Program-made: the position numbers and the translations under genes | The notes under the pieces: generated by a model | The model's database searches: none | The model's input: only the letters and a program-made list of their open reading frames with translations | Told to the model about the DNA's origin: nothing | Part shown: positions 8,707-56,135 of the stretch, in pieces | Position numbering within the stretch: the first letter of the stretch is position 1 | Layout of the letters: each line of letters begins with the position of its first letter | Source of the DNA: a virus | Strand: one strand, 5' to 3' | Length of the DNA: 64,000 bases | IMG/VR virus record: IMGVR_UViG_3300035671_000001 | Span: 18,506-82,505 of that record

Positions 8707-8897
8707 TGTCCCAAAAGAAGCTCACGTGCGACATCTGTGGGAAGCTCTATGAGACGCTTGGCAGCTATGGGAATCATACTGATGACGAATGGTGGATGTG
8801 TCTGAAATGCTTTGGGAAGGCGGATGAGTTGGCCGCAAAGGAGGACAGGTGGCCTGATGCGCGCGACTTTAAGACGGTGAAGGAGGAGATGCGCTGA
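8706..8897 (+). CDS. small Zn-binding hypothetical protein
   Basis: CDIC...CLKC; coupled start with GGAGGAG RBS. Confidence 0.6.
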   Translation: MSQKKLTCDICGKLYETLGSYGNHTDDEWWMCLKCFGKADELAAKEDRWPDARDFKTVKEEMR

Positions 8898-9163
8898 TGA
8901 TGGGTGACTTCGACATCAAATGGATTGATCGCAAGCACGAACCGCAGTGCGCGCCGAATCCGGCCTATCCTCTCGGCATTGACATCGATCTATCCCAAGG
9001 CGCGACGAAGGCGTGCAAGTCGGAGTTGCCCTATCCGGCGAAGCGGATCGGATTTTATATGGTCAAGTGCAATATCTGCGGTCTCACGACGGTGATTACC
9101 ACGGCTGGGCGGAGTGACGATCCGCGCAGCATTACCTTGGCTTGCGGGGAGAAGACGCAATGA
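8897..9163 (+). CDS. Cys-rich hypothetical protein
   Basis: 88-aa ORF, coupled start with RBS. Confidence 0.6.
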   Translation: MMGDFDIKWIDRKHEPQCAPNPAYPLGIDIDLSQGATKACKSELPYPAKRIGFYMVKCNICGLTTVITTAGRSDDPRSITLACGEKTQ

Positions 9164-9354
9164 GTGACGAACCTGAATTTCATCTCGACTTCTCAGAGCA
9201 AGATCCTGAACTTCCCGAGGTTCATCCCGACGAGTGCCCGGATTGCAAAGTGCCTGCCGAGGTGGCCTACGGCATGGCGGGAGGCGGCATCGGCGCATAT
9301 TCCTATTGTCCGCAATGCTACAAAATCCTCGCGAAGACACAGGACGAACAGTGA
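9160..9354 (+). CDS. small Zn-ribbon protein
   Basis: CPDC...CPQC; ATGA overlap. Confidence 0.55.
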   Translation: MSDEPEFHLDFSEQDPELPEVHPDECPDCKVPAEVAYGMAGGGIGAYSYCPQCYKILAKTQDEQ

Positions 9355-9626
9355 TGGCAGAGCGATTAGGTGATGCACCAATTGAGCCGGCCTACATCAA
9401 ACAGATGAAAGCCATAGCGAGCGTTATCGACGAGACGTTCAACGGAGGGGCGAAAGGCAAGGATCGCAAGACGGGGTTCGTGCTGATGGTGTTTCCGTTC
9501 AACGAAGTAACCGAAGGCGGCCGCGCCAACTACATCAGCAACGCTGATCGCAAGGACATCGTGGTGATGTTGAAGGAGCAGCTCAAGCGCTTCGAAGGCC
9601 AACCCGATGTGACGGGGCACGCATGA
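9354..9626 (+). CDS. hypothetical phage protein
   Basis: MAERLGDAP...GFVLMVFPF...ANYISNADR; TGATG coupling. Confidence 0.65.
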   Translation: MAERLGDAPIEPAYIKQMKAIASVIDETFNGGAKGKDRKTGFVLMVFPFNEVTEGGRANYISNADRKDIVVMLKEQLKRFEGQPDVTGHA

Positions 9627-9796
9627 GCTTTACCGCTGAGGAGAAATACATCGAAGCCATGCGCGAGGTGAAGATGCGCAGGACGGTTTACGCGCGCACC
9701 GGCATTGATCCAAGCGAGGCCAAGCGCAGGATTGCGATAATGGAGGCCATCGCCGAAGATTATGAAAAGCTGGCGGAATCCGAGCGGCTGCTATGA
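9623..9796 (+). CDS. small hypothetical protein (57 aa, absent from the ORF track)
   Basis: MSFTAEEKY...AESERLL; ATGA overlaps at both ends. Confidence 0.6.
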   Translation: MSFTAEEKYIEAMREVKMRRTVYARTGIDPSEAKRRIAIMEAIAEDYEKLAESERLL

Positions 9797-10071
9797 CTGT
9801 CCACACATTGAAATCGTGGCCCGAATTTTTTGAGCCTGTGTTGTCGGGCCAGAAGCAATTCGAGCTTCGGAAAAATGATCGCGACTTTCAAGTTGGTGAT
9901 CATGTGGTGTTGCGCGAGTGGGAGCCGAATGGGGATCGCTACACCGGGCGCGAGATCAACAAGCGGGTGACGTATGTGCTGCGCGGCCTTGGCAGTGTCG
10001 GCACCATCGCGCCCTATAAGGGACTCTCGATGGGGTACGCCATCCTCGGGCTCGCGGATACTGACTGGTGA
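9793..10071 (+). CDS. ASCH/DUF3850-family protein
   Basis: HTLKSWPEFF...GQKQFELRKNDRDFQVGD..LREW signature. Confidence 0.85.
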   Translation: MTVHTLKSWPEFFEPVLSGQKQFELRKNDRDFQVGDHVVLREWEPNGDRYTGREINKRVTYVLRGLGSVGTIAPYKGLSMGYAILGLADTDW

Positions 10072-10081
10072 AGTGTAGAGG

Positions 10082-10264
10082 TTGCTTATGACAGCCGAAG
10101 AGTTGGGTACGCTGATTGCCACATTGCGGGCTGATGCCCAGAGTTTGCAACAGATCGAAAAGACGCTGGTTGAAATGAAGGATCAGATGCTCTGTGTGCA
10201 TCTGAAGCTCAATGATTTAGCCACAGCCCTTGCAAGGGCCTTAGAGAAAAAGAAAAAGAAGTGA
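10082..10264 (+). CDS. small coiled-coil hypothetical protein
   Basis: 60-aa ORF within the run of coupled genes. Confidence 0.45.
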   Translation: MLMTAEELGTLIATLRADAQSLQQIEKTLVEMKDQMLCVHLKLNDLATALARALEKKKKK

Positions 10265-10828: not shown

Positions 10829-11027
10829 GGAATTCGGCCTTCTGGCGGGGCTGGGGAGGCCACCGGTGAGGCGCAGCGGCGCCCCGCTAGTCCAGCCCCG
10901 AGCAGGCTCGAAAATGACGCCCACGGGCTCCCCACGGGCTCGCCAAAGCAGCGGAGTTAACCTGCCAAAATAATTAAAATGGCGTTGATATTGCTGGTGT
11001 TTTCGTTGCCAATTATTGCTTTCAAGC

Positions 11028-11056
11028 TTGATATTTAGGAAGCAGTTTCCTATACT
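11028..11056 (+). promoter_or_regulatory. sigma70-like promoter of the accessory operon
   Basis: TTGATA-N17-TATACT in an AT-rich island; palindrome TAGGAA-N5-TTCCTA in the spacer. Confidence 0.7.
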
Positions 11057-11483
11057 ACTTGGACTGCCCCATCGCATGCGGCCGCAAATGGCCCCCGAGA
11101 CGGGCGGGAAAGGACCGGGAGCGGCCCTGTCGGCATCGATCGCCAGATCAGCCTTATTTCGAAATGCTCCCGCAGCCTGACGGCAGACTTCCAGGGGCCG
11201 TGTATCGCAGAATAACCCGAGGTGCGACGCGTCGCGCCCTGGTGGCTATCAGTCGATCAAGTTGCCGGCGAGTGCCCTTTGCGGCCGCTGTAGTTGGCCC
11301 TGATTTGATCGCGTGCTGCTGACGCGCTTGTGCCTCGGGACAAAAAACATCTGCGCACGACTCCAATAACGAAATTGCACCGCTTGCAAGGCGGTGCATT
11401 CCCAAGCGGCGGCTCGCTCCGCCGTTTCGGAATTCAGTGCACGTCGCTGCAACGGCGTTTCTCAAACCAACGGAGTCCCCATC

Positions 11484-11765
11484 ATGACTACTACCAATCT
11501 CACCACGACTATCGATCGGCTCGGCGTCATTCTAGCGCAAAAGGCCGAGTTGATAGCCGAAGAAAAGTTGCTCAAGGGCGTGCTCGTCGACAACGGCGCG
11601 GGCGCTTACGAGGGCGACTTCTACCGCGCCACCGTCAGCATCGCTGAGCGTGGCACGCTCGACATGAAAGCGGTACGCGAGAAGCTTACCGCGCAGTTCA
11701 TTCGCGCCCACACCAACGTCACCGAAGTTACGACAGTGAAAGTCGTGGCTCGAAACGGAAAGTGA
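11484..11765 (+). CDS. small hypothetical phage protein
   Basis: ATG after a GGAGTC RBS; 93 aa. Confidence 0.7.
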   Translation: MTTTNLTTTIDRLGVILAQKAELIAEEKLLKGVLVDNGAGAYEGDFYRATVSIAERGTLDMKAVREKLTAQFIRAHTNVTEVTTVKVVARNGK

Positions 11766-11948
11766 ATGGGCCATGTACTGCACAGTCGTTTGCGTGGGGC
11801 TCGTATGCTCTGCGCTCTGCTCCACTCCCGATCCGTTGACTCGGCAAATTCAAACCGAGCAATATCTACAGCGGTTCGGGCCGTGCTCGCTGGGTACATG
11901 TCCGCCGTTCAATCCTGGCGATCACATCCGCACCAACCCTTATACGAA

Positions 11949-12047
11949 GTGAATGCCGTCGGGCCGCGCTTTCGAGCGCGGTCCCGCAGTGTTCATCTCT
12001 GAATGCTCGCCGCTTGCAACGGTGTCCCTCTCTAACGGAGTCACTCA
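11949..12047 (+). promoter_or_regulatory. repeated structured leader element (copy before the AAA gene)
   Basis: TGAATGC..stem..CAGTGTTCA, hairpin with TTGCAA loop, GGAGTCAC RBS. Confidence 0.65.
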
Positions 12048-13064
12048 ATGTCTCTTATTCTAGAGCATGAAATCACCATCGCTGACGCGGCGGTGATGTT
12101 GGAAATCCTCACTGATGCCGGTGATCCGGTCATGATGTGGGGCAAGCCCGGTATCGGCAAGTCTGACATCGTGCACCAACTCGGCGCCAAGAAGCAGCGC
12201 AAGGTAATCGAGTTTCACGCGGCGTTGCGTGAGACTGTCGACTTGCGCGGTATTCCAATCGCTGATCCGGCGACGGGCACAACGAAGTGGTTGGTGCCCG
12301 CCGAGCTTCCGCAGGCAGAACGTGATGGCGAATTCGGCTATTTGTTCTGCGACGAGATCAACCAAGCGTCTCCCCAGATGCAAGGCGTTCTCGGTGGTTT
12401 GATACTTTACGGCGTCATCGGCGACTATCGCTTGCCTCCGGGCTGGCGCGTCATCGCTGCCGGCAACCGGGTATCCGATCGGGCGGCCGCTCAGCGTATG
12501 CCGACGCACATGCGAAACCGGTTCGCGCACTTGTTCATCATGCCTGATGTAAACGCATGGTGCGTGTGGGCGAACGCTAACAAGGTTGCGCCCGAGGTTG
12601 TCGCTTTCGTTCGGCTGCGGCGCGAGTTGCTGCACATGATGCCGAAGGGCGACGAGAACGCGTTCCCGACACCGCGCTCGCTGACGAAAGCTGCAAAGTA
12701 TGTCAACGCGCCGACAGAACATCGGCTGCGTTTGTTTGCTGCTCACGTTGGTGACGCAGTTGCGGCGGAGCTGGACGGCTTTATCGAGCTTTACCGGTCA
12801 CTCGGTTCGCTCGACGATATCGTCGCTGATCCAGACGGCGCTAAGGTTCCCACCGAACCGAGCTGCCGTTACGCGGTCTGCACCGGGCTCGGCCGCATCG
12901 CCACGCGCAAGAATTTCCCGAATATCATCCGGTATGCCAAACGGCTCAACCGGGAGTCGGAAGTGCTTGTCGTGACTGATGCGACTGGCCGCGATGCCAG
13001 CCTCAAGGACACCACTGCCTATGGAAAGTGGGCGGTAGCCAACCAGGACTTAACGGTCCAGTGA
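12048..13064 (+). CDS. MoxR-like AAA+ ATPase
   Basis: GKPGIGKS Walker A, LFCDEINQA Walker B, AAGNR, RNRF and PTPRS motifs. Confidence 0.88.
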   Translation: MSLILEHEITIADAAVMLEILTDAGDPVMMWGKPGIGKSDIVHQLGAKKQRKVIEFHAALRETVDLRGIPIADPATGTTKWLVPAELPQAERDGEFGYLFCDEINQASPQMQGVLGGLILYGVIGDYRLPPGWRVIAAGNRVSDRAAAQRMPTHMRNRFAHLFIMPDVNAWCVWANANKVAPEVVAFVRLRRELLHMMPKGDENAFPTPRSLTKAAKYVNAPTEHRLRLFAAHVGDAVAAELDGFIELYRSLGSLDDIVADPDGAKVPTEPSCRYAVCTGLGRIATRKNFPNIIRYAKRLNRESEVLVVTDATGRDASLKDTTAYGKWAVANQDLTVQ

Positions 13065-13153
13065 GTACTGCAGAGGGCCGCGCGTTGCGGCCCTCGACAG
13101 TGTTTATCCGAACGCTCCTGCCTTGCAAGCGGGCACTCTTAGGAGTCACCACC
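13061..13153 (+). promoter_or_regulatory. repeated structured leader element
   Basis: TGAGTACTG-GAGGGCCGC/GCGGCCCTC-CAGTGTTTA, TTGCAA hairpin, GGAGTCAC. Confidence 0.65.
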
Positions 13154-13327
13154 ATGTCACTCAACGAAGCAATCGCCGTTGTAAAGGCGAATGGCTACCG
13201 CGTGAGCAAGCCGAAGGCGACGAAGAAAGTTGCCCCGCGCTTGAACGCAGTCGGTCGGCCGTTCTCGTCGTCCTACGATCCCAACTACAAAATGAAATAC
13301 AAGCCAAAGCGCTACGCCTACCCGTGA
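13154..13327 (+). CDS. small basic hypothetical protein
   Basis: 57-aa ORF behind a leader RBS. Confidence 0.6.
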   Translation: MSLNEAIAVVKANGYRVSKPKATKKVAPRLNAVGRPFSSSYDPNYKMKYKPKRYAYP

Positions 13328-13420
13328 ACAGCGCAGAAGGCAGCCGCGTGCTGCCTTCGACAGTGTTCATTCGAACGCTACGCCTCTTGCAAATTGGCGT
13401 CCCTCACTGGAGTCACTACA
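13324..13420 (+). promoter_or_regulatory. repeated structured leader element
   Basis: TGAACA-GAAGGCAGC/GCTGCCTTC-CAGTGTTCA, TTGCAA hairpin, GGAGTCAC. Confidence 0.65.
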
Positions 13421-14317
13421 ATGAATAAACCAATCAAAATCGCAACGCCGCTCTCTCGAAAGGCGGTGCTTGTCTCTGTGAATATCTCGCAGTGGACGGC
13501 GCGAAAGTTGGATCGCAAGGTCACCGACGAAGTTAACCGCGCGCACAACGCGGCCAAGGACGCCGGGCGATACAACAAGCTCTTGATCGAGGCCGAGCAC
13601 TTGGCCGAAGTCAACAAGCTGGTTTCGAGTGCCAGGAGCTTGCACTACAGCATGACGCGGCCGTGGGCGGACGAGGGTCCGCGCATTCTGCCAAACGCGC
13701 TCTACTCGAAGTTCACTGACGCATTCCGTAACTTGAAGCGTGAGTTTCAGATTGCGGCTGATGCGTTCTGCGCCGGCTATCCGAGCTTCGTTGAAGAGCG
13801 GAAGAAATCTTTGAACGGCTTGTTCAAAGAAGCGGACTATCCGTCAGCGAACGACATCCGCAACAAGTTCAAGCTTGAATTGAACGTGTTGCCATTGCCA
13901 GACGCAGAGGACTTCCGCACCGATCTTGATCCCGACACGCTCGCGGACATCAAACGCGAGATGAGCGAGACTTCCGGCAAGGTGCTTGACGATGCAATGA
14001 AACAAACATTCGTTGAGATCACCGAGCTGGTCGGCCACATGGCCAAGAAGTTGAACGAGCAAACGGCCAAGACCAAGCAGAAAGGCGAGCGCAAATTCTA
14101 TCTCGACTCGCTCGTCAACAACGTGCGCGACTTGGCTGACTTGTTGCCTGCCTTCAATCTGACTGACGATCCGAAGCTCACCGCTATCACCAACCGCATT
14201 GCTAAGGAGCTATGCGTGGAAGATGCGAAGGAGCTGCGGAAGAATGACGAAGCTGCCAAGACAGTCGCCAAAAGCGCTGACGAGATCGTGGCCGAGGTGG
14301 CCAAATTCCTCGGCTGA
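13421..14317 (+). CDS. DUF3150-like phage protein
   Basis: AVLVSVNISQWTARKLD, YNKLL and TRPW..GPRILP motifs; this family is usually found next to AAA/VWA genes. Confidence 0.65.
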   Translation: MNKPIKIATPLSRKAVLVSVNISQWTARKLDRKVTDEVNRAHNAAKDAGRYNKLLIEAEHLAEVNKLVSSARSLHYSMTRPWADEGPRILPNALYSKFTDAFRNLKREFQIAADAFCAGYPSFVEERKKSLNGLFKEADYPSANDIRNKFKLELNVLPLPDAEDFRTDLDPDTLADIKREMSETSGKVLDDAMKQTFVEITELVGHMAKKLNEQTAKTKQKGERKFYLDSLVNNVRDLADLLPAFNLTDDPKLTAITNRIAKELCVEDAKELRKNDEAAKTVAKSADEIVAEVAKFLG

Positions 14318-14333
14318 TGATACTCTGGTGCTC

Positions 14334-14373
14334 GCGAGCCACTGCCTCGGAGAGTACCAAAGAACGAGAGCGA
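14334..14373 (+). ncRNA. solitary TIGR-like guide unit
   Basis: GCGAGCC-ACTGCCTCG-GAGAGTACC-AAAGAACGA-GAGCGA, same repeats and spacing as the array. Confidence 0.85.
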
Positions 14374-14467
14374 TACTAAGTGGGCCGTCCGAAAGCGCGG
14401 CCCATCATAGTGTTGCGGACTGCAACATTCCCCGCTGCAACGGGGCAATTTAATACGGAGTCACCAA
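14372..14467 (+). promoter_or_regulatory. repeated structured leader element
   Basis: GATACTA-TGGGCCG/CGGCCCA-TAGTGTT, CTGCAA hairpin, GGAGTCAC. Confidence 0.6.
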
Positions 14468-15931
14468 ATGCATAACGACAAACATGCGATGGATCGTGTC
14501 CTAAAGGCGCGCTCCGCGCTGATATTGGCCCGCCGTTTTTACGGCGTACTGGTGTCGAATGTTGAGCCCGTTCTTTCGCATGACGTTCCGACGGCCGCGA
14601 CGAACGGCAAGAAGCATTTCTGGAATCCCGATTTCATCGCTGAACTGACGCAGGCACGTCTTGAGTTTGTGCAAGCGCATGAGAGCGAACACGATGCGCG
14701 CCACCATGGTACGCGTCGCGGCGATCGCGATCCGAAAAAGTGGAATGAGGCCACCGACTTTGGGATCAATATCGATCTCAAGGACGAGGGCTTTGATGTT
14801 CCGCCATGGGCGTTGCTTGACGAGCGATTCCGAGGCATGAGCGCCGAGGATATCTACCGCATGCGCGAGCTTGACGAACAGAACAACAAGCCGCAGCCGC
14901 AGCCCGAGCCTGAGCCCGAACAGGGTGAGGATGAGGGCGACGACGCCGACACCGACGAGGACAAGGGCGACGAGCCTGAAGCTTCCGACGAGGAAGGTGA
15001 CGAGGAAGGCGACGAGGGCCAAGGCGACGACGGTGAAGACGGCGACGAAGAAGGCAAGGGTGAAGGCCCGGCCGACGACGGCGATGAGGAAACCGACGGC
15101 GGCCAAGGCGCTGGCGACAGCGAAGCGGAAGGCGACGGCACGGGCGAAGGCACGGGCAGCGCTGACGGCGACGCTGATGGTGAGCCCGGCGAGGGCCAGC
15201 CGCAATCGTCCGGTGATCCCGGCCGCTGCGGTGAGGTGCTCGACGCGGCTGAAGACGCTGGCGATCTCGCTGAGATCGATCAGAAGTGGGAACGCACGGT
15301 ACGGCAGGCGGCTTCGATGGCGAAAGCGATCGGGCAGCTTCCGGGTCATGTCTCCCGCGACATCGAACGGGCCAACAATCCTGGCCAGGACTGGCGCGAA
15401 GTTCTCCGCGCTTGGTTCGATCAAGGCTCGCTGCAAGTCGAGACTTGGAACCGGCCGAACCGACGCTTTGTCGGGGCTGGCTTGTTCCTTCCCGGCAAGC
15501 GGCGGGACGGTATCAACCGGGTTGCGTTTCTGATCGATACGAGCGGATCGATGGACACCATCGCGCTGGCTTGTATCAGGAACGAAGCGCAGGCCGCGCT
15601 TGATGACGGTGCGATTGATGAGGTGATCGCCGTGTACGGTGACACGCAAGTCACTCGCGTCGACACTTGGCGCACGGGCGACGAGATCGAGTTCGATCCC
15701 CGTGGTGGTGGCGGCACGCGCTTGCGTCCGCTGTTCGATTATGTGGCCGAGCAGGCTGACGATTGCTCTCTGATCGTTTGCTTTACGGATATGGAATTCG
15801 AAGATTTGAATTCCACCGAGCCTCCGGCTTGTCCGGTGCTGTTCGCAGCGACGGGCTATCCCGACAAGGTTCGCAGATATCTTGCCGATGCTCCTTGGGG
15901 AGCGGCTGGCATTGATGTCGGCGCCCACTGA
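14468..15931 (+). CDS. DUF2201-like metallopeptidase-VWA protein with acidic linker
   Basis: PTAATNG, HESEH (HEXXH), D/E/G-rich linker, IDTSGSM MIDAS, GGGGT, FTD. Confidence 0.85.
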   Translation: MHNDKHAMDRVLKARSALILARRFYGVLVSNVEPVLSHDVPTAATNGKKHFWNPDFIAELTQARLEFVQAHESEHDARHHGTRRGDRDPKKWNEATDFGINIDLKDEGFDVPPWALLDERFRGMSAEDIYRMRELDEQNNKPQPQPEPEPEQGEDEGDDADTDEDKGDEPEASDEEGDEEGDEGQGDDGEDGDEEGKGEGPADDGDEETDGGQGAGDSEAEGDGTGEGTGSADGDADGEPGEGQPQSSGDPGRCGEVLDAAEDAGDLAEIDQKWERTVRQAASMAKAIGQLPGHVSRDIERANNPGQDWREVLRAWFDQGSLQVETWNRPNRRFVGAGLFLPGKRRDGINRVAFLIDTSGSMDTIALACIRNEAQAALDDGAIDEVIAVYGDTQVTRVDTWRTGDEIEFDPRGGGGTRLRPLFDYVAEQADDCSLIVCFTDMEFEDLNSTEPPACPVLFAATGYPDKVRRYLADAPWGAAGIDVGAH

Positions 15932-16030
15932 ATACTGAGCACGGCGGTAAGTCCCGCCGTGTCACAGTGTTCACGACGAACACACCCGCGCGGGCTTGCA
16001 CCGCACGGCACTCAAATGGGAGTCACTCAA
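15929..16030 (+). promoter_or_regulatory. repeated structured leader element
   Basis: TGAATACTG-CACGGCGG/CCGCCGTG-CAGTGTTCA, CTTGCA hairpin, GGAGTCAC. Confidence 0.65.
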
Positions 16031-16228
16031 ATGAACAACGATGAAGTTCTCGCAACCATTAAAGGGCTGCGCAAGAACAAGGCCGAAGCCTATAAATACT
16101 GGCAAACGAGCAAGAAGCAGATTCGCCCCAGTGAACGGGCGATGACACTTGCGAGCTACGCCCGCGAGATCGAGGCACTCGATCGCGTCATTATCAAGCT
16201 GCTGAATGAGCAGGCGGTGCAATCATGA
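16031..16228 (+). CDS. small hypothetical protein
   Basis: ATG behind a leader RBS. Confidence 0.6.
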   Translation: MNNDEVLATIKGLRKNKAEAYKYWQTSKKQIRPSERAMTLASYAREIEALDRVIIKLLNEQAVQS

Positions 16229-16440
16229 ACCGACATGTAAAGCTAACCATCGCCACGCCGGAGGGCGTGGTGCTGGGCACGTTGTTCGTGTCTGTGCCTG
16301 CGAGCAAGCTTAGTGCAGCGGACGAGATTATCGATGTCATCCGCGAGAGCTTCGACAACTGCGCTGAGACGTTGCAAATCCTGCTCAAGCTTGACGCAAT
16401 TGACGACAAGGCCAGACGTTTACAGAAACAGGAGAAGTAG
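16225..16440 (+). CDS. small hypothetical protein
   Basis: ATGA overlap, 71 aa. Confidence 0.55.
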   Translation: MNRHVKLTIATPEGVVLGTLFVSVPASKLSAADEIIDVIRESFDNCAETLQILLKLDAIDDKARRLQKQEK

Positions 16441-16443
16441 AAA

Positions 16444-16671
16444 ATGAACTTGTTAGCCCATGCCCTGCGCGCCGAAACGCTCGACGTCGCGCTGACACCC
16501 ATCATGCGGGCGCTCGGCATCAAGACCGGCGACACCGCCGCCAACATCTTTAGCGGTATGGGCGACGATGAATGGCCCGAACTAACGCTCGAAGCTCGGC
16601 GTGACTGGCTGCTTCACTGGCTCAAATTCGAACTAATCGATGCCCAGGAAGAAGTGATGGAATGCCCATAA
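16444..16671 (+). CDS. small hypothetical protein
   Basis: AGGAG RBS, 75 aa. Confidence 0.55.
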   Translation: MNLLAHALRAETLDVALTPIMRALGIKTGDTAANIFSGMGDDEWPELTLEARRDWLLHWLKFELIDAQEEVMECP

Positions 16672-16676
16672 CCACC

Positions 16677-16716
16677 AAGGCCCCGCGAGCTTCTGGCTCA
16701 GCGGGGCCTTTTTTTT
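16677..16716 (+). terminator. intrinsic terminator
   Basis: AAGGCCCCGC...GCGGGGCCTT stem plus T8. Confidence 0.85.
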
Positions 16717-16894
16717 GGCCTGCTTGCAACAAGCCAAATGTGGAGTCACCCACAAGCGGAATCTAACCACCTCGGATGGCCGGCGCAAGCGAAGATGGCC
16801 AGTCACGCGCTGCGCCAACCTGCGCAAGTGCGGCACGAACTGCGACAACCAATAATTCTATGCACAGGAAAACGGTTCCGGTATGCTGCCCGGC

Positions 16895-17098
16895 ATGACG
16901 AGCACCGGTTACCGAAAAGCAATCGCTGCGCTCGGCCTTAACCAGAGGCAGGCGGGGGAATTCTTGAACCTCACCGACCGCACCTCGCGGAGCTACGCCG
17001 CTTATGGCCCGCCGGTGGTGGTGGCGATGTTGCTGCTCACGATGATCAAGCACGGCATCAGCGTCGATGACGTGAACGAACTAATGAAGAGGAAATGA
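16895..17098 (+). CDS. small HTH (XRE/Cro-like) regulator
   Basis: YRKAIAALGLNQRQAGEFLNLTDRTSRSY HTH pattern. Confidence 0.7.
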   Translation: MTSTGYRKAIAALGLNQRQAGEFLNLTDRTSRSYAAYGPPVVVAMLLLTMIKHGISVDDVNELMKRK

Positions 17099-17283
17099 CC
17101 ATGGCAAAGCATTCAGGGATAACCGTGCACCTCGGGGAACTAGCCCAAGCCGTGCTCCTCGACTTGCTCGACAACATTGCGCGCCAGCTTGAGAGTGGTG
17201 TCGATCCGCTGCGAGTCGCGCAGCAAATTCGTGCCTTCACTGCGGCTGAGAAGTCTGATGTTCGCGAGGAGTTGCTGAGATGA
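17095..17283 (+). CDS. hypothetical protein
   Basis: Coupled ORF with GAGG RBS. Confidence 0.5.
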   Translation: MTMAKHSGITVHLGELAQAVLLDLLDNIARQLESGVDPLRVAQQIRAFTAAEKSDVREELLR

Positions 17284-18258: not shown

Positions 18259-18759
18259 ATGGATGCCAAATGGTACGTGGCTCAGCTCAAGAATGGGCGC
18301 GAACGGGTAGCGATACGCGGGCTTGGTGACCAGGGATTCGAGAGCTACTACCCGCAAATGCAGGTGACGCGAGCCCGCAATGGGCGCGTGATCGATGACA
18401 CTGAGCCGGTATTCCCCTGCTATTTATTCCTGCGATCACAGCCTGACGCCTACTCTTGGCGCTCCATCAACAACACCCGAGGCGTGATCCGGCTGCTGGG
18501 CAATGACCAGCCGTGCTCGCTCCCGGATCGCGACGTCGAGCACCTCAAACTGCGCGAGAAAACGGGACAACTGCGGCATCCGCACCGCCGCCAGATCAGG
18601 GCTGGTGACGTGGTGGAGTTCAAGCTCGGCACCTTCGTCGGGCTCCAGGGCATCTGCCAGTGGACGCGGAGAGAGCGCATTTCCGTGTTGCTTCAAATTC
18701 TTGGCGGCAGTAGCGTCACCATCGCGCCACGCGATTGGCTCAAGCTCGCTGTTGCCTGA
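18259..18759 (+). CDS. NusG/RfaH-like transcription antitermination factor
   Basis: WYVAQLK, PVFPCYLF and INNTRGV NGN motifs; KOW-like GDVV...GTFVG. Confidence 0.88.
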   Translation: MDAKWYVAQLKNGRERVAIRGLGDQGFESYYPQMQVTRARNGRVIDDTEPVFPCYLFLRSQPDAYSWRSINNTRGVIRLLGNDQPCSLPDRDVEHLKLREKTGQLRHPHRRQIRAGDVVEFKLGTFVGLQGICQWTRRERISVLLQILGGSSVTIAPRDWLKLAVA

Positions 18760-51644: not shown

Positions 51645-54600
51645 ATGGCCGACGACGAGATCGTAACAACTATAATCATCGAAGGCTTCGGCGCCATCGA
51701 GGGCAATTTTAACAGCCTGGGAACGGCGGCTGAGCATGCCTTCGGGCAGATGAGCAAGGCGGCACAATCGACCTCTGGCTATCTCGACCAGCTCAGCAAG
51801 AAGATCACTGAGACGAGTAATGCGGCAAACGCTGCAGGTCAAACCAGTAGTGGCGGTGGGTTATTCGATAGCCTGATCGCTAAAGTAAAAGAAGCTGCCG
51901 TTCAATTCGAGGCGTTCAGAACGAAGTTCGGTGGCACGCTTTTTTCTGGCGTAGCGGCCGGTGGCAAGGAAGCTGAGAAAAGTATTCAGGCTGTCGGTGG
52001 CGCAGTAACCCAGCTTGCTACGCAAGGAGCTAATCTTGCGTCGGCTTTCGGACCTGGTTTCGGTGCCGTCGCGCGCGGTGCAACCGAGGCTGCGAGTGCG
52101 ATCATTAAATCGGCTTCTAGTCTCACTACGTTTTCCGGCGCATTGACTGCCATTACTGCGGTTGGCGTTTCGTTTGTTGGTATTGGCGCCGGCCTGATTG
52201 CGATTGCCAAGCACAGTGCTGACGCCGTCAGAGAGATGTCTGATCTCGCCGAGACGATGGGTTCGACGATCGAGCAGGCTTCGGCTCTCACGCAAGCGCT
52301 ACGTGAGCAAGGTGCTAGCACCGATCAGTTCGGAACTGCGATGGCGCGGCTATCGCAGACGATCGCTCGTGCTTGGGAAGAGATTCAAGCCAAGACGCAA
52401 GCGTTCGTCTCGACGTATCAAGGTGCTCTAATCCGCGCCCGTGATGCCACGATTGCATTACAGCAGGCGCAAAACAATGCTGCTCTGATCGATCGCCAGC
52501 AAGCTTCGCAGCGGGCACAGAACGCGCTGAGCGTGCAGGGTGCGGTGTTGTCGCTTGTCGAGGCGGAAGCCAATCTGGCGAGGATTCGCAGGGGTGGGGC
52601 TGCCGATCCGTTCACCGAAGGCAGGTTGGAAGCCGAGCGCGCCATCTTGCAGGTGCAGCAAGCGCGTCAAGCACTGATCGACGCCGAACTCACCCGCGAA
52701 ACGAATCTCCTGCAGGCGACCGTCGCGCGTCAGCAGATACAGCAGGCCATCGTCAAGGCGGCCAAAGAAGAACACGACGCCCGTGAGGCGGTCGCAAAAG
52801 TTATGGCCGAAAGTGTCCAATCCTCGATCCAACTGGCGAGGGATTTGGCGGCTGGCGGTGCTGGCGAGATTACCAAGACATTCGAAGGAGTCGCCGTCCA
52901 AGTCCCCAAGACCGTTGACAATATCATGCGGGGGATCATCGGGGCGATAGGCCCTGCGGTCAAACAAGTTCAGACTCTCGACGGTAGCCTGATTGATCTG
53001 GCGAGCGCACCGCCGAAGGTTCAAGAGGCGTTCTTCTTCATCCTCGACGTTCTGAAGGGCATCGACGACGAGGCCCTGCGCACATCCATCGCTATCCGCG
53101 CGTTCGGGCGGACGCTCGGGCCGGAGCTGGCGCGGCAGGCTGCGGAGGGAAGCGGGCCGATCAAGGCGCGGATGCAAGAGCTGGAGGACCTCGGAATCGT
53201 CCTCGACAAGGACGAGAAGATAATATCGCAACAGTTTACCAAGGCATGGCAGCGACTGATCGGCCTAGTCGGTTCGCTCGGCATCAAGGCGGGGGTGAAT
53301 TTCCAAGAGCCGTTCATTGCGGCGTTCAACCAAATCTCCGACGCCCTGACTAAGAATAGGCAAGCGTTCTTCGACTGGGCAAAAGACATAGCTAATCTGG
53401 TCAAGGTCGTGGTCGCCGGGTTGGTCCAGGCGTTCACCGGAATCGATCTCAGCAAGGCATTGAACCTCAATCCGGAGCAAGTCCTAAAAGCGCAGGAATG
53501 GCGGCGGACCTTCGAGGAGATCGGCACAGCCGCCAAGTTCTTTGGCGAGATAATCGCCGTTGTCTTCCGTGCGATCGTAGCCGTGGTCGCGGTCGCGAAG
53601 CGGGCGTTCGACACCTTTGCTCAGGGCCTCAACAATATATTCAACACTGACTTCTTCACGGCTTCCGGGGTCGCGATTTCGGCCTGGGCGGCCCTGATCG
53701 TCGCCAAGCTCGCCTTGGCCGGTGCGGCATTCGCGGGGTTCAGTGCTGCGGCCATCGCGTCCTTGGGCCTTCTGTTGATCACCCTTGCTGTCGTCACTGC
53801 GGCCGTCGCTACGTTTGCCGCCGCGCTTCCCGATGCGATTACTCAGGTGAGCTTGATCGCCAAAATGTGGCAAGCCGCCTCCGCGTCCGGCCAGAGCATG
53901 GGCGCGGCCCTCCTGATACTGAACGAGATTTTCCAGGAGCATAAAAACCTTTCGAAAGAAGCCAAGCAGGCAATGTCGAACCTGATTGATGAGTTCATCA
54001 GGAGCGGTGGCGTCATCAACGGCGTGAAACTCACGATGCAAGACTTGGCTGGCATGCTTCGCAAGCTGGCCGAAGAAGCCGATAAGACCAAGATCACTCC
54101 TAAAGTCGACCCGGCGGTAACGGACGCTCAGCAGAAGGCTGCTGAGGACGCCAAGAGGGCTGCGGAGGCAGCGGCGAAATCGCAGGCCGACCTGGACGCG
54201 GCGCTTCAACGATACCGCGACAGCATGGCCGGTACGGCAACCGGTGTCTCGCAGAACTACAGGGACATGGCCACCGCAGCGGATCGTTCCGCCAGAAGCC
54301 AGATCAACAGCGCGACCGGCATTGGCGAGGCGATGGATAGGCTAAAAAGGAAACAGCTTGACCAATCGATCTCGTCGGCAAATCTCAGTGTGGCCGAGGC
54401 GCGTTATAATCTGCAGGTTCTGACCGGGCAACGCGAGCGCGACGAGGAGCTGGAACATTCGTTCGCTGTTCGGCGAGCGCAGAATACCTTGCAGGACGCC
54501 ATCAACAATCGCGATAGCTTGGTTCTACAAAAACAAGCGGAACAACAGCGTCAGGCCGGGCGCGATTCGGCGGCGGCAGGAGACGCGGCGACGAGAGCTG

Positions 54601-56135
54601 CGGATGCGAACTTCGCTGCGAGTAAGAAGATTGAGGTCGGCTCGGATGGCATCAAGGAAAGCTATCTCAACAAGAACAAGGTACTCAAGGATCAGCAGGC
54701 GCTGGAGAGCAAGCCCGCCGATTCTGGGCCTACGAACCAAAAAATCCAGGACGCCACCAAGCTGACGGATGCACAAAGAAAGGCCACGGAGTCTGAACAA
54801 CAAACTATTAAACAGAGCAACGACGCATTAAAGGACGCGGCGGACAAACGCAGGGCGGCTCTGGAGGCAGAGGTCAAAGACCTCGAACGGAAGAACAAGG
54901 CAATTAAGGATGCTGCGGACGCAGCAAGGCAGGCAGCGCAAGATACCCAGACTGTAGACAACAGGTCTGTAGAAACTCAGAGAAAAATGGCGGCGCTCAT
55001 CGCGGCCACGGAAAGCCAATCGGCAAAAGATGCGACTACTCAAATGGGGCGCGACGCTGCAATACAGGCGGGGCGCAAGAAGGGAGAGGAGGATTCAAAA
55101 AAGGCGCATGAGGAAGCAGTAGAAGCAGCTCGAAAACTAGCGGAAACAGAAGCGGCAGGGGTCAAGGCAGCCGAAGACGAAGCAGGCGCACAACAGAAAA
55201 TTTTGGATATCATCCAGGATACAATCCAGAAGCTGAAAGAGAAGCAAGATCAGGAACAAGTCCCCACTCCACAGCCGAGGCCGCCGGGGGCGTTGCCCGG
55301 CGATCAGCCGATACCCATTGATCCGCAGCAATTCCAAGCGGGCGTCGAGCAAGAGAAGCAGGCTCTGGCAGACCTCGTGAGCACGGCTGAACAAGCTGCA
55401 GGCAACATCAACGACGCATTCAGCAACATCGACATCGGCACCGACATCGAGCAGGGTTCGCAGGACCCTGGCGCCGCCTTCGACTCACTCGTCTCGCAAG
55501 CTGAACAGGCGGCACAGAGTGTCAGTGACGCGCTGTCGAATGTCGAATTCAATCCGGATCAGATTGCTGGCGACTTCAGCGGGCTCGTCGATTCGGCCAC
55601 GCAGGCTGCGACTGACATGAGCAACGCGTTCCAGACCGTCGACATGGCCACTGGCATCAACAACCAGATCGACAGCATCGAGACTAACCTCTCGCAATTA
55701 GACACCGCTGTTGCAGACACGGGAACGGCATTCGACGAGTTCGGAAGCTCCGGGCTCAGTGGCGATCTTGCTACTGCGGCATTCGGTGGCTTATTCCGAG
55801 GACGTCCAGGCACTGACACCAACCTCGCGTGGATCACCGACTTCGAGTACATCATGCGACCGGAGGCGGTCAGGAAGTATGGTGTCAACTTCATGCACAT
55901 GATCAACAGCATGCAGTTTCCAGGCTTCCGCGCGGGCGGGCTCAACCTCAAGACCCCGGCTTACGTCGCTGGCGGGGCGGCGCGCGCGCAGAACACGCGC
56001 ACCATGCACATCACCATTGGGGACCAGACATTCCGCAACCTTGTGGCACCGGAGAACACGGCCAAGCAGCTCGAACGTGCGGCGATTAATCGGCAGTCTA
56101 CTTCCACTGGCGTCAAGCCACGCTGGAGCCGGTAA
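51645..56135 (+). CDS. tape measure protein
   Basis: 1496-aa Ala-rich helical protein with a hydrophobic segment; C-terminal GG...GTDT...EYIMR.EAVRKYG. Confidence 0.88.
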   Translation: MADDEIVTTIIIEGFGAIEGNFNSLGTAAEHAFGQMSKAAQSTSGYLDQLSKKITETSNAANAAGQTSSGGGLFDSLIAKVKEAAVQFEAFRTKFGGTLFSGVAAGGKEAEKSIQAVGGAVTQLATQGANLASAFGPGFGAVARGATEAASAIIKSASSLTTFSGALTAITAVGVSFVGIGAGLIAIAKHSADAVREMSDLAETMGSTIEQASALTQALREQGASTDQFGTAMARLSQTIARAWEEIQAKTQAFVSTYQGALIRARDATIALQQAQNNAALIDRQQASQRAQNALSVQGAVLSLVEAEANLARIRRGGAADPFTEGRLEAERAILQVQQARQALIDAELTRETNLLQATVARQQIQQAIVKAAKEEHDAREAVAKVMAESVQSSIQLARDLAAGGAGEITKTFEGVAVQVPKTVDNIMRGIIGAIGPAVKQVQTLDGSLIDLASAPPKVQEAFFFILDVLKGIDDEALRTSIAIRAFGRTLGPELARQAAEGSGPIKARMQELEDLGIVLDKDEKIISQQFTKAWQRLIGLVGSLGIKAGVNFQEPFIAAFNQISDALTKNRQAFFDWAKDIANLVKVVVAGLVQAFTGIDLSKALNLNPEQVLKAQEWRRTFEEIGTAAKFFGEIIAVVFRAIVAVVAVAKRAFDTFAQGLNNIFNTDFFTASGVAISAWAALIVAKLALAGAAFAGFSAAAIASLGLLLITLAVVTAAVATFAAALPDAITQVSLIAKMWQAASASGQSMGAALLILNEIFQEHKNLSKEAKQAMSNLIDEFIRSGGVINGVKLTMQDLAGMLRKLAEEADKTKITPKVDPAVTDAQQKAAEDAKRAAEAAAKSQADLDAALQRYRDSMAGTATGVSQNYRDMATAADRSARSQINSATGIGEAMDRLKRKQLDQSISSANLSVAEARYNLQVLTGQRERDEELEHSFAVRRAQNTLQDAINNRDSLVLQKQAEQQRQAGRDSAAAGDAATRAADANFAASKKIEVGSDGIKESYLNKNKVLKDQQALESKPADSGPTNQKIQDATKLTDAQRKATESEQQTIKQSNDALKDAADKRRAALEAEVKDLERKNKAIKDAADAARQAAQDTQTVDNRSVETQRKMAALIAATESQSAKDATTQMGRDAAIQAGRKKGEEDSKKAHEEAVEAARKLAETEAAGVKAAEDEAGAQQKILDIIQDTIQKLKEKQDQEQVPTPQPRPPGALPGDQPIPIDPQQFQAGVEQEKQALADLVSTAEQAAGNINDAFSNIDIGTDIEQGSQDPGAAFDSLVSQAEQAAQSVSDALSNVEFNPDQIAGDFSGLVDSATQAATDMSNAFQTVDMATGINNQIDSIETNLSQLDTAVADTGTAFDEFGSSGLSGDLATAAFGGLFRGRPGTDTNLAWITDFEYIMRPEAVRKYGVNFMHMINSMQFPGFRAGGLNLKTPAYVAGGAARAQNTRTMHITIGDQTFRNLVAPENTAKQLERAAINRQSTSTGVKPRWSR

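Follow-up and report, generated by a model that had tools for sequence, protein, structure and literature searches.

A folded RNA module of about 100 bases occupies nearly every gene junction of one operon in an uncultured soil phage, running from the stop codon of the upstream gene to the ribosome site of the next. The operon lies in the 64-kb stretch of DNA analyzed here (the window), which corresponds to bases 18506–82505 of an 82.5-kb IMG/VR virus record (IMGVR_UViG_3300035671_000001; soil origin, rated complete by CheckV, 59% G+C) carrying the helicase, terminase, portal, protease, and endolysin genes of a tailed phage. The module is preserved, with compensating changes, in about 17 related viral contigs. 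Across this phage and its relatives, 51 copies in which every pair covaries define a new, well-supported structured RNA family of uncultured soil phages that is absent from Rfam. Our tentative reading, to which we assign a probability of roughly 40%, is that the module is a cis-acting part of the operon mRNA at each cistron junction, with a helix that would be cut by host RNase III.

The window contains five full and two partial copies of the module, all on the + strand and all in an operon with three core genes, which encode an ATPase, a DUF3150 protein, and a DUF2201 protein (Table 1). An earlier reading of the sequence letters (the original prediction) had reported these seven copies, all of which we located, and the internal loop, the GC inner stem of varying sequence, the second hairpin with a YUGCAA loop, and the ribosome-binding site (RBS) that it described are all present. 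It had also assigned each copy an outer stem TGAAYACTG, which is exact in copy 5 only, although in copy 4 GCGATACTA and TAGTGTTGC still pair at 9/9 positions. The sequence GGAGTCAC occurs six times in the window, every time on the + strand and in this operon (1.9 occurrences expected by chance), and each copy is more stably folded than its own shuffles (z −2.4 to −3.8). A covariance model built from the five full copies finds no further copy in the 82.5-kb genome and scores the partial copies weakly (E 0.03 and 0.06). The comparison with Rfam that the original prediction had proposed gave no match at gathering score in the window (Rfam 15); at 11000–17200 there were chance-level matches only (E 0.4–10), none of them on a copy.

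To place the module in a wider context, we turn to related viral contigs. A search with the ATPase recovered 14 of these at 63–84% identity, several of which carry the same module at the same junctions, and an IMG/VR pattern scan followed by the covariance model added nine further contigs, most of them holding the same three core genes. The covariance model finds 46 copies beyond the window on 15 other contigs, for a total of 51 copies on 16 contigs. In three complete genomes (this one and two others searched), copies are restricted to this operon. Matches to the ATPase in cultured phages all fall below 40% identity, so there is no cultured model to work with. Among prokaryotes (one genome per species; pattern scan plus model), copies were found only on a 2.7-kb contig binned to a metagenome-assembled genome of a soil member of the Alphaproteobacteria, which is a weak hint as to the host. 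Among sequencing runs, the single strong match is a soil metagenome, possibly the source of this DNA, and none of the matching runs is listed as RNA. In some relatives the module stands ahead of other small genes, including those for superinfection-immunity proteins (L041:346–768(−), L030:9090–9503(−), and L082 after 7668); PF14373 was confirmed for the L041 and L030 proteins, and the L082 protein was grouped with them by sequence similarity only. One lineage (L016:5200–9740, = L021) carries, at the corresponding gene junctions, repeats of another leader, one made up of a stop codon, a long GC hairpin, more hairpins, and then a GCUCA..GAAAGGAA..AUGAGC hairpin enclosing the RBS and start codon.

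The anatomy of the module was drawn from the 51 copies. It opens with a 5′ arm of consensus UGAACACUR, whose UGA is the stop codon of the upstream gene in 29/51 copies; where an upstream open reading frame (ORF) exists (47 copies), the stop lies 0–10 nt upstream of the start of the arm in 39, and a few copies use a further stop (UAA or UAG) that lies in a different frame. Next come an internal loop of 2–3 nt, a GC inner hairpin whose sequence is different in nearly all copies, and a 3′ arm of consensus YAGUGUUCA. A third arm, GAACACU, located 3–6 nt past the 3′ arm, can pair with the 3′ arm in place of the 5′ arm, and we refer to it as the alternative arm. It is followed by hairpin P2 (a variable 5–6-bp GC stem with a CUUGCAA loop), a linker with a median length of 11 nt (39% A, 29% U, 25% C, 7% G), and the near-invariant GGAGUCAC, after which an ATG start follows in 50/50 copies. 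The UCAC on the 3′ side of GGAG is likewise near-invariant, though it is unable to pair with the tail of 16S rRNA. The distance from stop to start is 87–114 nt (median 95). The bipartite helix is about 17–20 bp long, with a median over the copies of 17 bp (range 11–22), and has a 2×2–3 internal loop between a 9-bp outer stem and a 9–10-bp inner stem. Among the window copies, the atypical copy at the operon head has a GC hairpin with a different outer stem and no alternative arm, and copy 4, where the DUF3150 stop lies 56 nt upstream, has all three arms altered together.

The statistics of pairing across these copies provide strong support for selection on the RNA fold, as had been proposed from the window copies. 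Five paralogs alone are weak evidence of covariation, and our test rests on the 51-copy set. In the nested helices, 86.6% of cells are paired, compared with 64.1% after shuffling and 33–51% with slid partners; changes on both sides occur at all 23 pairs (235 cells), 0/500 shuffles attain the observed values, and the outcome is the same for a 28-copy set. Because the nested structure guided the alignment, there is a bias in its favor; RNAalifold, however, independently finds the inner stem and P2, along with part of the outer stem. The alternative hairpin lies outside the model, and here 92.4% of cells are paired, against 20–45% in slid controls, and 19 cells carry changes on both sides. Joint changes of all three arms are seen in copy 4 and, among the relatives, at L137:1455, L008:6386, L011:3571, L015:3789, and L032:3739; this three-way constraint on the arms explains the sequence conservation of the outer stem, in contrast to the drift of the inner one. 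A strong excess of G·U over A·C cells (alternative helix, 15:0; inner helix, 16:2) shows that it is the sense strand that folds, and the orientation of the module and its stop and RBS further identify this strand as mRNA.

The alternative hairpin and the outer stem are mutually exclusive and almost equally stable. When folding is carried out with either the 5′ arm or the alternative arm blocked, the energy difference has a median of −1.2 kcal/mol (range −4.9 to +8.9), and the alternative hairpin itself has a median stability of −7.3 kcal/mol. The third arm, the stop in the stem, and the G-poor linker were not part of the original prediction, and together they turn what looked like a static hairpin into a junction with two states. 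Of the two further pairings that we considered, a long-range closing helix GUGA:UCAC was rejected because UCAC is invariant where GUGA changes, leaving no covariation, and an anti-Shine–Dalgarno (SD) sequence (CUCC past the alternative arm) is present in only about 12/28 copies.

Mutually exclusive helices and strong GC hairpins at an intergenic site might also suggest a transcription attenuator, or a terminator–promoter cassette in the manner of the PeSL cassettes discussed below, but we consider either highly improbable. For an expression platform of the attenuator or riboswitch type, in which one of two alternative helices is a terminator or hides the RBS, the evidence is mixed: such helices exist and are conserved, but there is no terminator and no consistent masking of the SD. 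Neither hairpin is followed by a U-tract, and a terminator scan finds none at the copies; near them on the + strand, its only terminator-like site with a T-run is at 16695–16716. A promoter scan finds one weak site at one copy, overlapping that copy's own start codon, and the count for the region is not above that in shuffles. TTGCAA has no −10 partner at 16–18 nt, and the SD lies 7–9 nt before the ATG, so that a transcript could not start downstream of a promoter here. Both sigma-54 and sigma-70 readings of TTGCAA were rejected, as the spacing and partner boxes were unfit by inspection and the promoter scan was negative.

A hairpin near the 5′ end of a message protects it against 5′-end-dependent decay. 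In the reading that we favor, host RNase III would cut the two-turn helix at the internal loop, on its 3′ side, and the upstream message would then end in a stable GC hairpin that shields it from 3′ exonucleases. The freed 3′ arm would snap onto the alternative arm, forming, a few bases from the new 5′ end, a hairpin that would shield the downstream message from decay, and that message would open with a standard, unstructured, strong translation start. The phage genome has no RNase III gene, and the host enzyme would thus be needed. As a by-product, the repeats of about 100 bp would offer homologous recombination joints at which small accessory genes could enter, be replaced, or move. RNase III substrates typically comprise two helical turns, and internal loops limit cutting to one strand, leaving a protective 3′ hairpin (PMC1540722). 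The geometry of such signals, a helix of about two turns with an internal loop, is matched by the module, and the RNase III–type processing sites considered in the original prediction are supported to the extent that the bipartite helix (median 17 bp, 2×2–3 loop) has the form of a substrate. RNase III processing would also give the third arm a job, including in the three copies (copy 4, L010:4759, and L010:8092) whose stop lies 56–59 nt upstream and which nevertheless keep all three arms; these far-stop copies indicate that the two-state design needs no terminating ribosome. The combination of three compensating arms, an in-stem stop, and a fused start suggests how each gene of the operon may become an independent, stable, and portable expression unit, and makes the module, at about 100 nt, a candidate natural cistron insulator.

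Several observations weigh against processing by RNase III, or at least against processing as the whole explanation. The length of the helix varies from 11 to 22 bp, and a recurrent variant, in which the 5′ arm ends in AGCG, has two adjacent mismatches in the outer stem. Processing alone leaves unexplained both the coincidence of the stop with the exact first triplet of the stem in 57% of copies and the conservation of the P2 loop and of UCAC after GGAG. In addition, other relatives carry the same three genes with short plain spacers or a different leader, so that the module is dispensable for the genes as such.

The position of the stop codon would be accounted for if a ribosome terminating on the UGA in the 5′ arm melted only the outer stem and the alternative arm caught the freed 3′ arm, an alternative that we regard as somewhat unlikely. 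The outcome, which we hold with the same degree of doubt, would be a junction that reports or insulates upstream translation, either through coupling or by shielding the downstream start from the released G/U-rich strand. A ribosome covers about 9 nt beyond its A site, which is the length of the arm, and the inner hairpin begins just past it; the stop is most often the first triplet of the arm or at most 10 nt upstream; the first copy, which has no gene ahead of it, lacks the alternative arm; and the two folds are nearly isoenergetic. However, the three far-stop copies retain the full three-arm design, modeled accessibility of the SD shows no consistent shift among the full, ribosome-masked, and cut forms (0.37, 0.41, 0.41), and we found no anti-SD sequence that is conserved.

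The two conserved single-stranded motifs would instead find an explanation if the modules served together as operators for a single trans-acting factor (an RNA-binding protein of phage or host, or else a loop–loop contact) that reads the P2 CUUGCAA loop, GGAGUCAC, or both, and sets the translation of all operon genes together. We consider this unlikely, although a number of features fit. The P2 stems vary freely, with both sides changed in 10–19 of the 51 copies at each pair, while the loop stays YUUGCAA; the near-invariant UCAC after GGAG has no role in pairing with the 16S tail; lone P2-type hairpins occur at the head of the operon and past its terminator; and derived variants are common to the copies within some genomes (e.g., L009, L010, and L078). 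Elsewhere on this strand, a scan for P2-type hairpins finds only one, with a longer GUUGCAAUA loop inside the helicase gene, which is probably there by chance. Against such a factor, only the three core genes are conserved proteins among the operons that bear the element, and P2, lying 8–14 nt upstream of the SD, does not obviously occlude it. The sites for a translational regulator raised in the original prediction thus agree with the conserved loop of the second hairpin but are left with no conserved partner. A 166-aa NusG-family protein (window 18259–18756; PF02357, E 4e-21) is encoded directly ahead of the structural genes. As a candidate partner it was rejected: of two complete genomes that bear the element, G001 (L009) has a 75% identical homolog, whereas G002 (L020), with its seven + strand copies, has none.

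ProQ-type proteins bind RNA hairpins. We note in this connection that a 69-aa cargo ORF at L011:1258–1464 has a sub-threshold match to a phage ProQ C-terminal-like domain (E 0.004), which is too weak to use.

Comparison of gene content between relatives, as suggested in the original prediction, reveals both an insertion and a rearrangement bounded by elements. Relative to L008, the segment of the window at 13157–13322, which holds the 57-aa ORF, has been inserted: both copy 2 and copy 3 align to a single L008 element, so that element–ORF–element in the window corresponds to one element in L008. The start of an ORF in L008, lying behind the element that follows the DUF2201 gene, is 71% identical to the 57-aa ORF over the 14 residues available before the end of the contig; a search of IMG/VR for homologs of the 57-aa ORF found none. 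L015 and L032 align collinearly over the core genes and as far as the following element; beyond it their cassettes differ, and a 165-bp segment (88% identical) has a different position, a rearrangement that is again bounded by elements. The cargo behind the module consists mostly of orphan ORFs: among 51 cargos, 24 are the three core genes, three belong to the superinfection-immunity family, and about 22 are singletons. Copies in the same slot of different phages are 0.617 alike, compared with 0.607 for random pairs, and clustering of copies by slot or by genome gave no clear signal.

These observations might be taken to mean that the module acts mainly at the level of DNA, in recombination or mobility, as a portable joint spreading along with its cassettes, and that its RNA fold is incidental. 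The element-bounded insertion and rearrangements, the occurrence of one small ORF start in different slots of the window and of L008, the proportion of singleton cargos and the presence of superinfection-immunity proteins among the cargo, the lack of greater likeness between same-slot copies, and the stop codons that the 5′ arm offers in two frames would all suit such a joint. We judge it quite unlikely, however. The tyrosine recombinase family PF00589 is absent across the whole 82.5-kb genome, the arms do not fit the attC core, hairpins are unnecessary for homologous recombination, and the bias of G·U over A·C, together with the constant orientation of the module and its set distances from stop and start, points to selection at the level of the transcript. 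The original prediction's recombination sites for cassette shuffling thus stand insofar as copies bound inserted and rearranged genes; the genome has no site-specific recombinase, and any exchange would therefore proceed by homologous recombination. The same genome encodes, outside the window, a RecE-like exonuclease VIII (phrog_412; L027:7390–8529) and a RecT-like annealing protein (phrog_561; 8868–10142), which together form a phage recombination system. Since the phage encodes RecE and RecT but no integrase, exchange probably proceeds by homologous recombination between repeats, and we regard such gene exchange as a result of the repeats and not as their main function.

The two levels may also be combined. 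At the RNA level, the module would be a bistable three-arm switch, which helix cleavage or a ribosome halting inside the helix would flip and which caps both neighboring messages and presents a standard start; at the DNA level, it would be a joint for RecET-mediated capture and movement of promoterless genes. The result would be an integrase-free, integron-like platform, here also freeing a solitary TIGR guide RNA. As a whole this composite picture is possible, although we hold it with considerable doubt.

By analogy with systems already described, the module would function as a T7 RNase III signal joined to a Cluster K–type start-associated sequence (SAS) and would evolve as a PeSL does, and it is a member of none of these. 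The familiar RNase III signals of phage T7 (R0.3, R0.5, R1.1, and others) are, like the module, repeated between the genes of one transcription unit. Both consist of a hairpin of about two turns with an internal loop, the cutting of which would leave a protective 3′ hairpin (PMC1540722), although for the module cleavage is only predicted. There is no sequence similarity between the two, and the module adds a third arm that forms the alternative 5′ hairpin, an in-stem stop, a further hairpin whose loop is conserved, and a fused RBS of standard type.

The PeSL (promoter-early stem-loop) cassettes of T4-type phages consist of a sigma-70 promoter and a working terminator, and their exchange by homologous recombination has been documented in those phages (PMC2839356, PMC4122927). 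Like the module, they are short conserved regulatory cassettes between small, variable, mostly orphan genes, and they bound indels and replacements between related phages, as seen here for the window versus L008 and for L015 versus L032. In contrast, the module has neither promoter nor terminator and spans the interval from stop to start codon within one transcript. It thereby links expression signals to gene turnover in a phage group unrelated to T4.

The SAS and ESAS elements of Cluster K mycobacteriophages are built on an asymmetric conserved SD motif whose flanks are unable to pair with 16S rRNA (PMC3203893). As with the module, they lie a few bases before the ATG, in one orientation, ahead of non-structural genes only, and they often have inverted repeats ahead of them and sometimes include the upstream stop codon (PMC3203893). 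The likeness is one of analogy only: the sequence and host group differ, and the 13-bp GGGATAGGAGCCC is not matched, the motif of the module being GGAGUCAC. Moreover, the ESAS repeats show no compensation of the RNA type and are thought to be DNA sites (PMC3203893), whereas compensation and G·U bias are strong in the module.

Integron attC sites share with the module conserved outer inverted repeats around a variable paired center, a frequency of one per cassette, and strand-specific folding. Their core, RYYYAAC ... GTTRRRY, is not matched by the module arms AGTGAAC ... GTTCATC, which fit at 5/7 positions on each side. The 82.5-kb genome has no integron integrase (PF00589), and the module, unlike attC, precedes its gene and carries the RBS of that gene.

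The solitary TIGR-type unit mentioned above lies immediately ahead of copy 4. The exact pattern of an array unit has 43 other matches, all at 3159–6239, where 43 tandem 36-nt TIGR-type units each comprise two alternating 9-nt repeats and two 9-nt spacers; for this array only the repeat pattern is confirmed. That a solo guide abuts one copy of the module, as the original prediction stated, is real: the unit ends in GCGA, and with these four bases the 5′ arm of copy 4 begins. Both the 3′ arm and the third arm of this copy carry changes that match the GCGA-bearing 5′ arm. If the helix is cut, the cut would set the 3′ side of the solitary unit, which agrees with the suggestion in the original prediction that the abutting copy could help release the guide. 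The module gives a way to ask how its neighboring TIGR unit matures.

The coordinates of the module copies and of the other features of the operon are collected in Table 1. On the + strand, the operon comprises, in order, a 93-aa ORF, a 59-aa ORF, the ATPase, the 57-aa ORF, DUF3150, DUF2201, and three small ORFs.

Table 1. Module copies, genes, and signals of the operon, with positions in the window.
Feature	Position	Strand	Parts	Basis
Atypical first copy, operon head	11376–11487	+	lone P2-type hairpin 11376–11398 (UUGCAAG loop); second P2 11441–11458 (CUGCAA loop); GGAGUCCC; ATG 11484	model R1 15.7 bits, E 0.029; fold, hairpin scan
Copy 1	11945–12050	+	stop UGA 11950, opening 5′ arm 11950–11958; inner hairpin 11962–11984; 3′ arm 11987–11995; alternative arm 12001–12007; P2 12008–12024; GGAGUCAC 12037–12044; ATG 12048 (ATPase)	
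AAA_5 MoxR-type ATPase, core gene	12048–13064	+		Pfam and PHROG scans
Copy 2	13057–13157	+	ATPase stop UGA 13062, opening 5′ arm 13062–13070; inner hairpin 13073–13095; 3′ arm 13098–13106; alternative arm 13110–13116; P2 13117–13133; GGAGUCAC 13142–13149; ATG 13154 (57-aa ORF)	
57-aa accessory ORF, between copies 2 and 3	13154–13327	+		inserted relative to contig L008; blastn breakpoints
Copy 3	13320–13424	+	stop UGA 13325; 5′ arm 13325–13333; inner hairpin 13336–13358; 3′ arm 13361–13369; alternative arm 13373–13379; P2 13381–13397 (long loop); GGAGUCAC 13409–13416; ATG 13421 (DUF3150)	
DUF3150 protein, core gene	13421–14317	+		Pfam and PHROG scans
Solitary TIGR-type unit	14334–14373	+	repeat, 9-nt spacer, repeat, 9-nt spacer, repeat start	exact array-unit pattern match
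Copy 4	14366–14470	+	5′ arm GCGAUACUA 14370–14378; inner hairpin 14383–14405; 3′ arm UAGUGUUGC 14408–14416; alternative arm GCAACAU 14422–14428; P2 14429–14445; GGAGUCAC 14457–14464; ATG 14468 (DUF2201)	
DUF2201 metallopeptidase/VWA, core gene	14468–15931	+		Pfam and PHROG scans
Copy 5	15924–16034	+	stop UGA 15929; 5′ arm 15929–15937; inner hairpin 15940–15962; 3′ arm 15965–15973; alternative arm 15978–15984; P2 15985–16008; GGAGUCAC 16019–16026; ATG 16031 (65-aa ORF)	
Intrinsic terminator, operon end	16679–16716	+	GC hairpin, then eight U	fold and terminator scan (T-run site 16695–16716)
Remnant copy	16718–16751	+	P2 hairpin (CUUGCAA loop) and GGAGUCAC, without a start codon after	E 0.062

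Two further features of the window deserve brief mention. An ORF of 1496 aa at 51645–56135 has no Pfam or PHROG match. The middle part of the DUF2201 protein is a long, acidic, low-complexity insert rich in D, E, and G (window 14860–15220), which is a source of spurious DNA matches to unrelated phages.

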